NCBI GenBank assembly: GCA_001819985.1
Contig: MHOE01000025.1
Location: forward strand, 5,738-69,737
Origin: Candidatus Spechtbacteria bacterium RIFCSPHIGHO2_02_FULL_43_15b
GTDB lineage: Bacteria > Patescibacteriota > Minisyncoccia > Spechtbacterales > HO2-43-30
Reading direction: 5' to 3'
Length of the DNA: 64,000 nt
In this document: positions 21,559-27,343 of the stretch, piece after piece
How the letters are laid out: every line of letters begins with the position of its first letter
Position numbering within the stretch: position 1 is the first letter of the stretch
Made by a program: the position numbers and the translations under genes
The notes under the pieces: generated by a model
The model's input: only the letters and a program-made list of their open reading frames with translations
Database searches by the model: none
Told to the model about the DNA's origin: nothing

Positions 21559-22296
21559 TCAGATTGTGAAGTTTGTTTCAAAATTAAGAAGCTTGCCCCA
21601 TGTCTCAAAAAGCTTCTTTGTTGTTATGACATCCTCAAAACAATAACGGGCGATCTCTTCGTACTTTCCGTCCTCAAACGCTTTCGGCACTTCTTCGCCT
21701 GTTATATCCCCGTCTTTGGGACTTTTAACTCCAAATGCTTTCGCGGCGAAGTGAAGACCGGTTCTTCTAATCGCGCCGTAGAAAGTAAACTGATCCGACA
21801 GGTCAATATGCTGGGGACCGTATTTCTGCATTGAAACATAACGATTTGGCATTAGATTTCTAGACGGCTTAATACCCCAAATCGCGGAACGAATCAAGAG
21901 GTATGGCGCGTCGAAACATCTTCCGTTGAAAGTCACAAAAACAAAATAATTCCTCGCTACTTCCCAAAATCTTTCCAGTATCTCTTTTTCCGTACCAGAC
22001 CAGTAGTGAATTCCGCTTTCCTCAAAATCGGACGAGCCGGTCGCGTCCGGATGGCTCCCATCCCTTCGAAAATAAACCGCTCCTTTATTTTTATCGTCCA
22101 GCATTCCAATTGCCACTATCTCGCCTAAAAACGGCGAAAGCGGAAGACCCTTTTTAATATTCTCAAGACCTTTTTCAATCTGTTCGTCGCTTTCAGCGTC
22201 TCTTCCCGCCCATTTTTTGAAAGTTGCTATGCTTGTTTCATCGAAATCCTCGTATTTTTTCCCGATTGTTTCGATATCTAAAACTAAATAAGACAT
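21559..22296 (-). CDS. RNase-H-fold 3'-5' exonuclease (DnaQ/PolB-exo-like)
   Basis: The N-terminal YLVLDIETIG exo I motif is followed by acidic exo II/III candidates. Confidence 0.5.
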   Translation of the reverse strand: MSYLVLDIETIGKKYEDFDETSIATFKKWAGRDAESDEQIEKGLENIKKGLPLSPFLGEIVAIGMLDDKNKGAVYFRRDGSHPDATGSSDFEESGIHYWSGTEKEILERFWEVARNYFVFVTFNGRCFDAPYLLIRSAIWGIKPSRNLMPNRYVSMQKYGPQHIDLSDQFTFYGAIRRTGLHFAAKAFGVKSPKDGDITGEEVPKAFEDGKYEEIARYCFEDVITTKKLFETWGKLLNFETNFTI

Positions 22297-22379: not shown

Positions 22380-22757
22380 TTAGGGTTCTAAAATTTCTTT
22401 TACTTTCTTTACTAATTCCTCGGGGCTGTAATCCACCTTGAGGATGTAATCGCTGACTCCAAGCCGCAGAGATTCGAGTACGGTTTCGTTGCTTTTCAAA
22501 TTAGTAAGTATTAAAACAGGCATATCCGACGCTGTCGCATCTTTCCTGATTTCCCTAAGAATAGAAATACCGTCCATTTTAGGCAGTATGAGATCCAATA
22601 AAATTAAATCAGGTCTGTTTTCTTTGAACTTTTTAAGGCCGCTTTCGCCGTCTTCAGCGACAAAAACATTATATCCCTCTTCGCTAAGACGGTTGTTTAG
22701 AATCCGCAAGATAACGGAGTCGTCTTCTATGAGCAAGATTGTTTTTTTGTCAGCCAT
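22380..22757 (-). CDS. Stand-alone response-regulator receiver (CheY-like)
   Basis: 125 aa with phospho-acceptor context ILLDLILPKMDG and acidic pocket residues IEDD. There is no output domain and no kinase nearby. Confidence 0.8.
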   Translation of the reverse strand: MADKKTILLIEDDSVILRILNNRLSEEGYNVFVAEDGESGLKKFKENRPDLILLDLILPKMDGISILREIRKDATASDMPVLILTNLKSNETVLESLRLGVSDYILKVDYSPEELVKKVKEILEP

Positions 22758-22961
22758 ACTCTAAACTACCGCCAATTCAAAACATTGCCGAAATCGACGA
22801 TAACTGTTTTTAACTTTACTTTTAACATAACACTCATTTATATTTTAACCTCTTAATTCTAGCATACGCGTTCGCGCGAAGGCAATACGCGCCTTACGCA
22901 AAAACCTATTTTTTTATAAATTGCTTTGCGACTATTTTAGATAACTAATAAATAAAACAAC

Positions 22962-22990
22962 AAAAAAGGCGAATGCGCATCGCCTTTTGT
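22962..22990 (-). terminator. Intrinsic terminator (bidirectional) downstream of the GC-rich CDS
   Basis: AAGGCGA-atgcgca-TCGCCTT stem-loop flanked by AAAAAA and TTTTG. Confidence 0.6.
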
Positions 22991-23103
22991 TAATTAACTA
23001 AAGAATGAAAACCATTCACGCTACCTTTTCACGGAAGTGTAGGTAGCCCAAATTTTGCTGACTCAAGGAGTCAAAAGACCCAAGAGTTCGAGTTTTCGAG
23101 GGG

Positions 23104-23961
23104 CTACTGCGAGACGAACCCCGAGGCCGAGCCACAGAGCTTGTCGGCACTGCAGACCAAGCTGACGACGAACCTGACCTCGCCGCCGTAGAATCTGAAG
23201 GTCGGCGCGCGCGAGAAGTCGCCATCGGCGTCCGGACTGTACTCGTCACTGGGGCAGTCGATGTGCAACCGATCCTGCTGAACGAGCCGCTCGGGATGCG
23301 ACAGAATCATGCACCCCGTGATAAACGACCCGAGGCCGAACTCGTGGGGAGCGTAGACCACGCGCACCCGCCGGATGGACCGACCCCGATGGGTCAGACC
23401 GAACTGCGCCGGGATCAGCAGAAAGTCGCCCTTCTGCTTATCGCCGATCATCTGGAGCGCGACAGCCGTCCGCTCGGATAGCCGCAGGTACTTCGGGCCG
23501 AGTGCGCCTTTGTAGTAGTTGTGGAAGGTGCGGGTTTTGTCGATCAGGTCAAGGACCTTCTCGACAGCCTCGTTGTACGAGGACGCAACCTTCTCCCACC
23601 GCGGAACGGCGAACCAACCTTCCGCGCCAGCGGGCAGAGCCGGAAGCTCCTTGAAGTAGGCCAACACCGAACTGGCGTTGAGACCGTTGAAGTGCTTGGA
23701 AAGCTCCACGAGCTGTTCCAAGACCGGCTTCACGGCGTACCCCTGCGGATAGCCGTAGTTGGACTGCACCTCTTCTTCGGCGAAAAACGGACTCGCCGTG
23801 ACGAGAGGTCTCGAGGTCACTTCCGTGGCCTCGACGATGGACTGCAGGGATCTCGCGACTCCACTCGGATCGAGCGTGCCTTCCAACAGACGACGCTGGA
23901 CTTCCCACATACGGCGGGAAATCGTTCCAAGAATGTCGTCTGCGACGATGTGAGTCGTCAT
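23104..23961 (-). CDS. Compositionally foreign (~60% GC) protein of unknown function
   Basis: The ORF extends to 24021, but a perfect AAGGAGG SD sits 7 nt before the internal ATG at 23961. GC content and codon usage (CGG/GCC/CTG-rich) are unlike every other gene here, and I recognised no family motif. Confidence 0.6.
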   Translation of the reverse strand: MTTHIVADDILGTISRRMWEVQRRLLEGTLDPSGVARSLQSIVEATEVTSRPLVTASPFFAEEEVQSNYGYPQGYAVKPVLEQLVELSKHFNGLNASSVLAYFKELPALPAGAEGWFAVPRWEKVASSYNEAVEKVLDLIDKTRTFHNYYKGALGPKYLRLSERTAVALQMIGDKQKGDFLLIPAQFGLTHRGRSIRRVRVVYAPHEFGLGSFITGCMILSHPERLVQQDRLHIDCPSDEYSPDADGDFSRAPTFRFYGGEVRFVVSLVCSADKLCGSASGFVSQ

Positions 23962-24021
23962 GGTGACAACCTCCTTTTGATTTGCGAGATTCGCCCTCGC
24001 TGTTGCGGCCCGCCTCGACAT

Positions 24022-24070
24022 GAGGTAAGCGCGTTAGGCATAACAGCATTACGCCCAGTGCGCTTACCTC
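24022..24070 (-). promoter_or_regulatory. Leader hairpin (11-bp perfect stem, 27-nt loop) in the 5' UTR of the GC-rich gene
   Basis: GAGGTAAGCGC pairs with GCGCTTACCTC. A candidate sigma-70-like promoter lies upstream: -35 TCGACA (complement of 24133-24138), a 17-nt spacer, then -10 TATATT. Confidence 0.45.
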
Positions 24071-24273
24071 ATAAAAATAGCCCTCTTTTCAATGTGTGAT
24101 TTACTGCTAAAATATAGCAGATTACATCTAATTTGTCGATATTCCGGAATCTCAAAATAATTAGCGGGGTTATAAAACTTATCATTACTGCCCATGACAC
24201 TTCTACATTTTATTGACTACCCCGCACGAATCAATTAACATAAATGTAGAATCTTTTGTCAGGGGAGAATGTG

Positions 24274-24525
24274 ATGTCTGCAATGCCTAAAATAAATGAT
24301 GATGTCTATGTCCCAACAATTTCCGATGACAATAATATATACTATGTCGGTGGGCTCGCCAAAGTAGTTAAAATTATCGCTGGCCAAATTATCGTTGAAG
24401 AACACAATAGTGCAAATTATCGCTGGAAAAACGGACTAGATGCCATGCAAGAATCTTTGAAAAAACAATTCGGAAATCAGCGAGCCTCTAGTACCGGCAT
24501 CATACCTCCATGCCCTCTTGAATGA
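24274..24525 (+). CDS. Small hypothetical protein (83 aa), divergent from the GC-rich gene
   Basis: AT-rich native-like composition. An AGGGGAG SD lies 8 nt before GTG/ATG, with TTGACT-N17-TAACAT upstream, and the stop is embedded in a terminator hairpin. Confidence 0.45.
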   Translation: MSAMPKINDDVYVPTISDDNNIYYVGGLAKVVKIIAGQIIVEEHNSANYRWKNGLDAMQESLKKQFGNQRASSTGIIPPCPLE

Positions 24526-24535
24526 GGGCATTTTC
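24510..24535 (+). terminator. Intrinsic terminator overlapping the stop codon of the small ORF
   Basis: ATGCCCTC-ttgaat-GAGGGCAT followed by TTTT. Confidence 0.5.
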
Positions 24536-27343
24536 CTATCCCAATTTCCCATGACACTTTTTATATTTTTTTCCCGATCCGCACCAACAAGGGTCGTTTC
24601 GACCCACCCTATTTGTGCCCTGCGGAACTTTTACTGAAGCTGAATCATTTTCCAAAAGATTACCGGCGCTCACATCATTTTCCGGACTTGATTCCGTAAC
24701 GCCAGCATCGCTTTGCTTCGACGATTGCCTCAATTCCACTTTGAATATAGTATTTACGACTTGCGATCTTATAGTATCAAGCAACCTTACAAACATTTCA
24801 CGCCCCTCGCGTTTATATTCAACCAACGGATCTTTTTGCCCATACGCGCGAAGACGCACGCTGTCGCGCAAATATTCCATAGCGTCCAGATGATCCATCC
24901 ACAAAATATCTATCGTGCGTATAAGCACGAATTTTTCCAATTCCCGCATCGCCTTTTCGCCCGATTTTTCTTCCTTTTCCCCATAAACTTGCTTCGCTTT
25001 CCCAAAAATAATAGCCATCAAATTCGTTTTTAGATCATCCGCGTCCTCTTTTTTTTGAATTGCGCCAAACAATTGCTGGTGGAAATCGCTCGGCAAAGGA
25101 AAAATACTTTTTATATTTTCATAAATTTCTTCTATATTCCACTCCGCGGGATGCCCCGCGCCTGTGTGAAAATTTACGACAGCTTGGATTTCTTCTTCTA
25201 GGAGATTCAAAATTTCCCGCTTCGTATCGTAATCTGGCTTTAAGATATTGATGCGCCTGCCGTATATTGTCTGCCTTTGCTTGTTCAAAACTTCGTCATA
25301 TTCCAAAACATGCTTTCTTGTGTCGAAGTGAAATCCCTCAATCTTGCCCTGCGCGGACTCGATAGCGCCTGAAATCATACCGCTTGCTATCGGCTGGTCT
25401 TCCGGAATTCGCAGAGTTTCCATAAGGCGCTTTATTCTATCGCCGCCAAATACGCGCATTAAATCATCATCGAGCGACACAAAAAATTGAGATTCGCCGG
25501 GGTCTCCCTGACGCCCCGCGCGACCTCGCAACTGATTATCTATTCTTCGCGCTTCATGTCGTTCGGTTCCCAACACAAACAGTCCTCCGGCTTCGCAGAC
25601 CTTTTTGGCCTCCTCTGGCGAGGGAGGATTTCCTCCTAAAATAATGTCCACGCCTCGGCCCGCCATATTAGTAGCTACCGTCACAGCATCCTTTCGTCCG
25701 GCTTGAGCTATAATTTCTCCCTCTCTTTCATGATTTTTCGCGTTCAAAACCTCATGCTTTATTCCGGCTTTTTGTAAAAATGTCGAAACGACTTCATTAT
25801 TCTGAATGGATGTCGTGCCAATTAAGATTGGCTGACCCTTTTCATGGCGTTTTTTAACCTCCTCCACCATCGCTCTCATTTTTCCCGCCCGGCTCCTAAA
25901 AACAAAGTCCGGGCTGTCTTTTCTTATCATTGGCTTATTTGTGGGTATTGAAACTATCTCGATTTTATAAACTCTGTCGAATTCTTCCGCGGATGTCATA
26001 GCAGTGCCTGTCATTCCGGCAAGCTTCTCGTACATTCGAAAATAATTCTGGAAAGTGATTGAGGCAAGCGTCCTTGATTCTTTCTGCACCTCCACATTCT
26101 CCTTTGCTTCAAGCGCCTGATGCAGACCTTCTGAATATCGCCGGCCGGGCATTAAACGGCCGGTAAACTCGTCAACTATTATAACCTCCCCATTTTTTAC
26201 AACATAATCTTTGTCCTTTCTAAAAAGGGTGTGAGCTCGAAGCGCTTGCTCTAATTGATGCGCATACCTGATCCCTCCGCCCTTGGCGGGATCGTAAATA
26301 TTTTCTATTCCTAAAATTTTTTCCAGTTTGGAAATCCCATTTTCCGTGATAGTTGCGGCGCGCATTTTTTCGTCAACATTGTAATCTTCGCCTTCCTTAA
26401 GTTGCGGCACAATTTGTGAAAATGTCTTATACAAGGATGTGGATTCCGCATCCGGAGCGGAAATTATAAGGGGAGTACGGGCTTCATCTATTAAAATGGA
26501 GTCCACCTCGTCAACAATTGCAAAATAGTGCGAGCGCTGAACCATCTGATCCAAAGAGTGCGCTAAGTTATCACGAAGATAATCAAATCCAAATTCATTA
26601 TTTGTGCCGTAAGTGATATCCGCATCGTACGCCTCCTTCCGCGTACAGGGACGAAGATAACTGTCCTCCACCTTAAAAGCGCCGAGAGTGTCCCTTGCCT
26701 CGTCCCGTTTGGAATTTTGCTTGTCCGCAGAAACTTCATTTAATCCCGCGCCATTGATATTTGATTCACCGTTTATAATCGGAAATTGGCTGTTTCGAAC
26801 TTTGTAAGCCGCGTCGTAAATAAATGCCGAATCATGGACTATGCACCCGATGCTCAAACCTAGGATATTGTAAATCTGACCCATCCACACCGCGTCTCTT
26901 TTTGCCAAATAATCATTTACAGTAACGACATGAACGCCTTTTCCCGTGAGCGCGTTTAAGCAAACCGAAGTTGTCGCGGCAAGCGTTTTTCCTTCACCCG
27001 TACGCATTTCGGCGATTTTTCCCTGATGCAACACAACCCCGCCCATTAGCTGAACATCATAATGCCGCTGTCCTAGAGTGCGTTTTGCCGCTTCACGAAC
27101 AAGTGCGAATGCAATTGGCAAAATTTCATCAAGTTTCTGCGCGAAACTAGCGGGGTCTGACCCCGTTAGTTTTGGGGGTCTCAATTCATTAGCCAGCTCA
27201 CTGCTTTTTTGCCTCAATTCCGCATCCGAAAAAGTCGCGATTTCCAGCTCAAACGCGTTTATTCTATCTACGACTCCATTTAACTTTTTTATTTCCTTCT
27301 CGTTGGGATCGCCGAGAATTTTAGAAAATAAGCTCATAACCAA
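24536..27343 (-). CDS. secA: Preprotein translocase ATPase SecA
   Basis: 935 aa with DEAD-like motor motifs and a C-terminal zinc-binding tail CWCGSGKKYKKCHG. Confidence 0.9.
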   Translation of the reverse strand: MVMSLFSKILGDPNEKEIKKLNGVVDRINAFELEIATFSDAELRQKSSELANELRPPKLTGSDPASFAQKLDEILPIAFALVREAAKRTLGQRHYDVQLMGGVVLHQGKIAEMRTGEGKTLAATTSVCLNALTGKGVHVVTVNDYLAKRDAVWMGQIYNILGLSIGCIVHDSAFIYDAAYKVRNSQFPIINGESNINGAGLNEVSADKQNSKRDEARDTLGAFKVEDSYLRPCTRKEAYDADITYGTNNEFGFDYLRDNLAHSLDQMVQRSHYFAIVDEVDSILIDEARTPLIISAPDAESTSLYKTFSQIVPQLKEGEDYNVDEKMRAATITENGISKLEKILGIENIYDPAKGGGIRYAHQLEQALRAHTLFRKDKDYVVKNGEVIIVDEFTGRLMPGRRYSEGLHQALEAKENVEVQKESRTLASITFQNYFRMYEKLAGMTGTAMTSAEEFDRVYKIEIVSIPTNKPMIRKDSPDFVFRSRAGKMRAMVEEVKKRHEKGQPILIGTTSIQNNEVVSTFLQKAGIKHEVLNAKNHEREGEIIAQAGRKDAVTVATNMAGRGVDIILGGNPPSPEEAKKVCEAGGLFVLGTERHEARRIDNQLRGRAGRQGDPGESQFFVSLDDDLMRVFGGDRIKRLMETLRIPEDQPIASGMISGAIESAQGKIEGFHFDTRKHVLEYDEVLNKQRQTIYGRRINILKPDYDTKREILNLLEEEIQAVVNFHTGAGHPAEWNIEEIYENIKSIFPLPSDFHQQLFGAIQKKEDADDLKTNLMAIIFGKAKQVYGEKEEKSGEKAMRELEKFVLIRTIDILWMDHLDAMEYLRDSVRLRAYGQKDPLVEYKREGREMFVRLLDTIRSQVVNTIFKVELRQSSKQSDAGVTESSPENDVSAGNLLENDSASVKVPQGTNRVGRNDPCWCGSGKKYKKCHGKLG

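Follow-up and report, generated by a model that had tools for sequence, protein, structure and literature searches.

What is a gene of conspicuously high G+C content doing beside secA, with expression signals of its own, amid bacterial genes of far lower G+C content? We met this question in a stretch of 64,000 nucleotides from Candidatus Spechtbacteria bacterium RIFCSPHIGHO2_02_FULL_43_15b (assembly GCA_001819985.1, contig MHOE01000025.1, positions 5,738 to 69,737 of the forward strand), hereafter the window. One minus-strand coding sequence (CDS; Table 1) has a G+C content of 61.4% (0.61, 0.43 and 0.80 at codon positions 1, 2 and 3), compared with 41.3% for the whole window. In sliding windows of 400 nt it peaks at 0.65, the highest value elsewhere in the 64 kb being 0.52 (z ~7.6), and it is the sole strong outlier; third-position G+C (GC3) in the neighboring secA, helicase, REC response regulator and exonuclease genes is 0.43–0.44. 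An earlier note, made by a model from the sequence alone, had singled out this CDS as a compositional outlier, which the sliding-window analysis bears out, and had read it as an orphan gene of foreign origin. Our analysis leads elsewhere. The segment from ~24139 to 23064 on the minus strand is very probably a self-contained module for the variable protein of a diversity-generating retroelement (DGR), uncoupled from the retroelement itself. DGRs are, to our knowledge, the only natural system of targeted protein hypermutation outside adaptive immunity, and bacteria of the Candidate Phyla Radiation (CPR) are their richest cellular hosts.

The CDS has many homologs and is no orphan. With a word-indexed search, 491 were recovered at no more than 98% identity, every one from Patescibacteria (CPR); an exhaustive profile search returned 2,041 representatives of 50%-identity clusters, with E below 1e-30 for 1,076. 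The coding frame is genuine, since identity to homologs at codon positions 1, 2 and 3 is 0.93, 0.93 and 0.79. Searches of Pfam, NCBIfam, PADLOC, PHROGs and PDB sequences, with the single sequence and with a profile, gave no match, and on this point the earlier note, which had recognized no family, was right. An AlphaFold model built with 62 homologs reached a mean predicted local distance difference test score (pLDDT) of 89, and in it the protein is predicted to adopt a C-type-lectin-like fold with the variable region (VR) in its last ~44 codons. Structure comparison of the kind that had been proposed for the 285-residue product was unrewarding, and Foldseek with the model found nothing significant in PDB or BFVD. 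No signal peptide or membrane segment could be recognized in the protein.

Gene context in relatives was surveyed at 79 species-representative loci, with reverse transcriptase (RT) and Avd looked for within 5 kb. Downstream of the homolog at L001, L003/L004 and L006-L008 come a gap of ~450 nt, then bAvd in the opposite orientation, then the gene for an RVT_1 reverse transcriptase. Each of these loci also carries a 131-nt direct repeat, one copy being the 3′-most 131 nt of the gene and the other lying just before Avd. All mismatches between the copies (16 of 16, 12 of 12 and 17 of 17) have adenine in the downstream copy. Mismatches confined to template adenines are the defining signature of a DGR, and the gene therefore encodes the variable protein, with the VR at its 3′ end and the downstream copy as the template region (TR). 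The window protein is 83% identical to P0006 of L001, the homolog whose TR/VR pair accounts for the 16 of 16 adenine-to-any-nucleotide (A-to-N) differences. Across the survey, RT and/or Avd matches were found at 40 of the 79 loci, 36 of which also have a TR, and 636 of 678 VR/TR mismatches are A-to-N; the non-adenine changes come nearly all from two doubtful repeat matches. One further locus has a doubtful TR-like repeat only (10 of 25 mismatches A-to-N), and RT, Avd and TR are all missing at 38. The window gene thus belongs to a large CPR family of DGR variable proteins that has gone unannotated. The targets of CPR clade 2 DGRs generally have no recognizable domains (PMC8144416).

We then asked what the window copy retains of this system. 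Compared with the consensus of 34 family TRs, its VR differs at 17 of 29 conserved TR adenine columns but at just 5 of the 71 conserved columns without adenine (Fisher p=1e-7), and its adenine fraction is 0.115, next to 0.112 in DGR-linked VRs and 0.243 in TRs. The retroelement was not found: three Avd and two RT proteins of relatives, used as tblastn queries, gave no match in the 64 kb; the sole blastn match to the relatives' TRs was the VR of the gene itself; a repeat search of the window revealed no second VR copy; and no cognate TR differing from the VR only at adenines is present there. Variation has also stopped. In the 90%-identity cluster of the window protein (six members, including the window copy, from several assemblies), 0 of 36 VR columns vary compared with 27 of 241 others (11%), the changes outside the VR being in part mosaics with L001-type alleles, and no continuing VR diversification was seen among these close relatives. 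In control clusters of the family, 44–56% of VR columns are variable versus 0–5% elsewhere. The window VR thus bears the mark of past adenine mutagenesis and is now frozen.

The same VR also occurs in less closely related proteins. P0025, which is more distant and whose first ~55 residues are entirely different, has a VR identical to that of the window. P0268 and P0025 share the C-terminal half and the VR with the window protein, and the N-terminal parts of P0268 come from other family alleles; these mosaics indicate that intragenic recombination may have carried the window's VR between alleles. In Candidatus Lloydbacteria (L006-L008, L016), the RT open reading frame (ORF) beside the target is split into several short ORFs, and the VR is invariant in the five cluster members compared, yet the TR/VR pair is 17 of 17 A-to-N. 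This looks like a second, independent case of DGR decay with a frozen VR.

The upstream signals of the window gene proved to be a property of the family. The promoter picked out earlier holds up as the best promoter-like site in the region and would place the start of transcription near 24104, and sites scoring at least 10/12 lie at a median of 36 nt 5′ of the leader model in 78% of 46 leader-bearing loci, versus 4% of shuffled sequences. Because of this placement, the leader is best read as the transcribed 5′ untranslated region (UTR) of the target gene. Most family members have one leader architecture in common. When 22 leaders were aligned, the consensus contained 25 base pairs, 17 of which show double compensatory changes, and the predicted fold of the window leader has a z-score of -4.0. 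Covariance model R1 was searched over 830 kb from 85 sources. Sense-strand matches occurred in 47 sources, always directly 5′ of a family gene and nowhere else; the remaining matches were weaker antisense ones at the same sites, reflecting the palindromic nature of hairpin P1. In 32 sense matches, 94% of alignment cells were paired compared with 31–47% when partners were slid, and none of 500 shuffles reached the observed value by any measure. The leader is rich in G·U pairs, which makes the structure sense-strand specific. As to the details first described, both the long hairpin and the small GCGAG/CTCGC hairpin are present, the former not as an 11-bp stem at 24022-24070 but as a longer, two-part structure; the AAGGAGG ribosome-binding site is likewise there, with a spacing of 8 nt instead of the 7 first counted.

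A second helix can be drawn within the leader. The linker, which follows P1, resembles the 5′ arm of that hairpin, and its pairing with the 3′ arm of P1 is possible in 91% of cells, compared with 36–46% in slid controls; one pair of this alternative helix covaries cleanly (CG 14, UA 11, UG 7), and the helix is predicted to fold in nearly all sequences once the 5′ arm of P1 is blocked. The linker and P1 helices would be mutually exclusive, which suggests a two-state switch, and the leader would presumably have a regulatory role. Leaders are equally frequent in DGR-linked and DGR-less loci (23 versus 23). The folding and covariation analysis recommended earlier yielded a covarying structure; Rfam, run on the window and 42 family loci, contained no match for the leader. 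Neither a terminator following the leader nor a platform that could sequester the Shine-Dalgarno (SD) sequence was found.

From these observations we propose the following. A sigma-70-type promoter would drive an mRNA with a structured leader of ~140 nt followed by a strong SD sequence, the leader consisting of the long P1 hairpin, a linker that may pair alternatively with the P1 3′ arm, and the short P2 hairpin. In about half of the related genomes, an adjacent TR, Avd and RT would rewrite the VR at adenine-templated positions. In the Candidatus Spechtbacteria copy the cassette would be gone, with the VR keeping the footprint of old mutagenesis and variation having ceased. The product would be a ligand-binding protein with a single locked-in specificity, made from its own promoter under leader control; most likely, the window protein binds its ligand through the VR face. 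Three observations weigh against this proposal. The genome is seen here through one contig of 66 kb, which leaves room for a trans-acting DGR elsewhere. A protein-homology search for a Spechtbacteria RT was uninformative, covering the top 120 of over 7,000 relatives. Finally, predicted SD accessibility does not differ between the two states of the leader (0.54 versus 0.48), so a switch governing access to the SD sequence is not supported.

The first of these points bears on the alternative that comes closest, namely that diversification of the gene continues, with a TR, Avd and RT encoded on a different contig of this genome acting on it in trans. Action in trans is within the reach of DGRs, and some lineages have remote targets (PMC5758913). 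The window VR keeps its IMH-like (initiation of mutagenic homing) 3′ end and a conserved 3′ flank, and the 38 family loci that have no cassette within 5 kb could partly reflect remote cassettes. An active target, however, would be expected to vary as the other family clusters do, heavily and in the VR, and the window VR is identical in the six cluster members and P0025, which come from separate assemblies and differ outside the VR. CPR DGRs are moreover reported with single adjacent targets, remote ones being confined to another lineage (PMC5758913). Given an invariant VR, the absence of TR, Avd and RT from 64 kb, and this preference for single adjacent targets, loss of the cassette is therefore favored over a DGR acting in trans, which we regard as improbable, and the cassette has probably been lost from the Candidatus Spechtbacteria copy and does not lie at a remote site.

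The view from which the earlier note started, in which a foreign G+C content betrays the recent arrival of a toxin, defence or effector gene as cargo, or the insertion of a cassette, seems to us more unlikely still. The G+C contrast is strong, the unit brings its own expression signals, no curated family matches, and the discordant identities of target and SecA suggest lateral exchange. The contrast itself, however, recurs throughout the family. At the 79 loci, target genes have 49–66% G+C and a GC3 of 0.54–0.90 with flanks of 32–60% G+C; the excess averages 15 points and exceeds 5 points at 76 loci and 10 points at 66. It depends weakly on host G+C (slope 0.27, r=0.46) and is equal with or without a DGR. 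Family members have diverged to 45% identity at the protein level, with third codon positions near saturation, so the excess must be maintained. Present at 76 of 79 loci and down to 45% identity, it therefore belongs to the gene family and not to a single transfer: it is a trait of the family and gives no clue to the date of acquisition. Nor is the deviation particular to the recipient genome, as would be expected of a horizontally acquired islet, when 76 of 79 family members deviate in hosts of 32–60% G+C. The family is defined by its linkage to DGRs, neither PADLOC, Pfam, NCBIfam nor PHROGs offered a defence, effector or phage match, and only 2 loci with the family were found among 2.9 million viral contigs. 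No integrase, transposase, tRNA, direct-repeat or flanking-repeat boundaries occur at the window locus, and the genomes available included no close Spechtbacteria relative with an empty site.

The position of the gene speaks in the same direction. It had been described as an insertion between the response regulator and secA, but in three other species (L010, L050, L058) secA has the family gene immediately downstream, and in a fourth (L014) the two are near each other; the location is therefore no one-off insertion site. The earlier note had named a homolog with the same flanks as the finding that would speak for an old resident gene, and the adjacency to secA in those three loci comes close to this. 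SecA of the window (24536-27343) is 51–57% identical to SecA of the four species; for the target, identity is 82% to two of these species and ~45% to the remaining pair. Comparison with L010 gives 82% identity for the target and 85% for the DNA (1,076 nt, promoter included) but just 57% for the adjacent SecA. These values point to a module that was likely exchanged or replaced laterally, independently of its flanks, at a conserved position. Horizontal acquisition as first proposed thus survives as probable lateral exchange among CPR bacteria and falls as a recent insertion recognized by G+C content.

High-GC DNA does yield spurious long ORFs, such as 23521-24099(+) and 23549-24049(-), but the idea that chimeric assembly produced the GC-rich stretch, or that it specifies a structured non-coding RNA and the ORF is an artefact, is effectively refuted by an identical protein with the same neighbors on several independent assemblies (contigs up to 194 kb), by the excess of variation at third codon positions, by more than 2,000 homolog clusters at the protein level, by a confident structure model and by the lack of an Rfam match.

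What maintains the G+C excess is a separate matter. Enrichment within DGR cassettes is limited to the target gene: in L001 the target has 0.61 G+C, Avd 0.36 and RT 0.34, and host genes ~0.40. Spreading of DGR activity from the VR was considered as a cause and rejected, as GC3 is even along the non-VR portion of the gene family-wide and is equal with or without a DGR. Translational selection by the host was rejected as well, GC3 in the ribosomal protein, SSB and recA genes of L001 being only 0.23–0.33. In the window gene, GC3 climbs from 0.67 to 0.88 in the 5′ to 3′ direction and adenine at third positions drops from 0.14 to ~0; this gradient is absent from the average of 71 family members and is either allele-specific or noise. 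A candidate cause of the excess is biased gene conversion tied to frequent recombination. Taking leader and composition together, one may tentatively suppose, though we would not expect it to hold in full, that the P1-linker-P2 leader is a new switch-type class of cis-regulatory RNA for CPR DGR variable-protein genes, and that the GC3 excess (0.55–0.90; hosts 0.25–0.45) comes from a gene-specific force, for example biased gene conversion via frequent recombination or lateral replacement of the module. If so, the target gene itself, beyond the retroelement, would be a specially managed locus, and evolution would regularly end in DGR-less frozen copies, each fixing a binding specificity that had been selected.

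Comparison with known systems shows where the window copy agrees and where it departs. DGR proteins with a C-type-lectin fold, such as Mtd of Bordetella phage (PDB 1YU0) and TvpA of Treponema denticola (PDB 2Y3C), share with it a C-terminal VR on what is predicted to be the same type of fold and a GC-rich, IMH-like end, and in its relatives, as in those DGRs, the TR differs only at adenines and Avd and RT are adjacent. Unlike them, the window protein has no recognizable signal peptide, membrane or tail-fibre context, and around the window copy the 64 kb contain neither TR nor Avd nor RT. CPR clade 2 DGRs (Roux et al. 2021, PMC8144416) are alike in host group, in their cellular, non-viral context, and in having small targets with no recognizable transmembrane or other domains; they have a single adjacent target (PMC8144416, PMC5758913), a description that the DGR-linked relatives of the window copy fit. 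Surveys of CPR DGRs, however, find targets only beside an RT, and the DGR-less copies (38 of 79 loci) fall outside their scope. Remote DGR targets in Treponema and Legionella are also VR-bearing genes with no RT beside them, but they keep varying and match a TR elsewhere, whereas the window VR is invariant and the 64 kb contain no TR. RT-10 and other RT-associated RNA motifs (Weinberg et al. 2017, PMC5737381) are, like the leader, covarying RNAs at DGR-related loci; the family leader, in contrast, would serve as the target gene's 5′ UTR and occurs just as often in DGR-less loci. With riboswitch-type leaders it shares two mutually exclusive helices, but neither an Rfam match nor a terminator or SD-sequestering platform. 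Three features go beyond what has been described: frequent DGR-less copies, the one in the window frozen; a dedicated covarying leader outside Rfam; and a G+C excess of the target alone. In the papers on CPR DGRs that were consulted, Paul et al. 2017 not being among them, neither a conserved target-gene leader RNA nor a gene-specific G+C excess in DGR targets is mentioned.

Roughly half of one large target family thus stands alone, with no retroelement, and is invisible to RT-centred surveys, and the fixed VR of the window copy would represent a natural locked-in specificity. A covarying leader of its own implies regulated expression and offers a handle on when CPR target proteins are made. 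The target gene, unlike the genes for Avd or RT, holds a strong G+C excess across very AT-rich genomes; the signature could mislead island-detection methods and is not evidence for recent transfer.

Table 1. Coordinates of the module in the window and of LOOT RNAs at other family loci.
Feature	Position	Strand	Remarks
Sigma-70-type promoter TCGACA-N17-TATATT	24111..24139	-	10/12, best promoter-like site in the region
Structured 5′ leader RNA (predicted)	23980..24073	-	Covariance model R1, 79.5 bits, E=1e-16
Leader P1 long hairpin	24071-24021	-	14-bp outer and 10-bp inner stem
Leader linker box GAGGCGGGCCGC	24016-24005	-	Able to pair with P1 3′ arm
Leader P2 hairpin GCGAG/CTCGC	24000-23984	-	
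Shine-Dalgarno sequence AAGGAGG	23970..23976	-	8 nt 5′ of ATG; kept in homolog leaders
CDS, 285 aa, DGR variable protein of CPR-wide family	23104..23961	-	N-terminal helices, then C-type-lectin-like fold (predicted)
Variable region (VR), 131 nt	23106..23236	-	Last ~44 codons; IMH-like GC-rich 3′ end; aligns to relatives' TRs
YTYGA (CTCGAA/CTTGA) repeat array	23061..23103	-	4 copies, directly 3′ of stop codon
Decayed copy of family terminator-like hairpin	23020..23049	-	Family consensus GGGTTATCCACA...GTGGATAACCC and T-run
Intrinsic terminator	22964..22988	-	9-bp stem and T-run; no homology to relatives
LOOT RNA	L020:5639-5762	+	
LOOT RNA	L033:5975-6099	+	
LOOT RNA	L026:6000-6119	+	
LOOT RNA	L084:5978-6106	+	
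LOOT RNA	L031:3618-3738	+	Inverted pair with next
LOOT RNA	L031:4295-4412	-	Inverted pair with preceding
LOOT RNA	L041:4495-4624	-	
LOOT RNA	L045:1622-1751	-	

The extent of the module follows from DNA homology to L010-L012 (~85% identity), which spans 24137 to ~23064 and takes in the promoter, the leader, the CDS and ~40 nt past the stop codon. At ~24139-23064, the conserved unit is narrower than the 22758-24535 first delimited. The 3′ flank of the family, 0–130 nt past the stop codon, opens with arrayed YTYGA repeats, after which comes a terminator-like hairpin with a covarying stem and a T-run. The repeats number 3.4 per 70 nt on average family-wide, versus 0.36 in shuffled sequences. The corresponding hairpin in the window reads GGGCTACCTACA...AGGTAGC and has no clean T-run; the 5′ arm of the family hairpin, GGGTTATCCACA, includes a perfect DnaA-box 9-mer, TTATCCACA. 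Characterized DGRs have target-recognition elements downstream of the VR (PMC5758913, PMC3240598), and by analogy it is plausible that the array and hairpin are involved in retrohoming. The intrinsic terminator noticed earlier exists and probably ends the transcript in this genome, but it is no part of the conserved unit.

Other neighbors of the gene also lie outside the unit. An 83-codon ORF (24274-24525(+)) between secA and the module exists as described before and is a called gene in the NCBI annotation; the hairpin at its 3′ end (24510-24531) doubles as a terminator for the convergent secA. The ORF is a singleton confined to Spechtbacteria assemblies, and it was rejected as a part of the cassette, having no homolog in any family locus and no Pfam match. 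The exonuclease (RNase_H_2/DNA_pol_B_exo2) and the response regulator occupy 21559-22296(-) and 22380-22757(-), the latter likewise beyond the limits of the conserved unit. Homologs of the exonuclease were found only near L062, just downstream of the family gene (46% identity), and L012, a few kb downstream (61%); a synteny shared with L003 was rejected when tblastn showed the two proteins to be dissimilar. Response-regulator homologs occur near the family gene in L002, L086 and L070. Such co-occurrence may represent lineage synteny or a loose functional neighborhood. The sole long inverted repeat in the window (49239-49287/60898-60946) has arms of 49 nt with 71% complementarity, separated by 11.6 kb; it probably arose by chance and is unrelated to the module.

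A last observation concerns a known RNA at other family loci. The window contains no LOOT RNA, but matches to this family (RF03000, 72–82 bits; gathering score 46.4) lie ~160–200 nt from the module at 7 of the 42 loci scanned. All seven loci are DGR-linked, and LOOT always lies on the side of the target gene that faces away from TR, Avd and RT. An undescribed association of LOOT with CPR DGR loci is possible.

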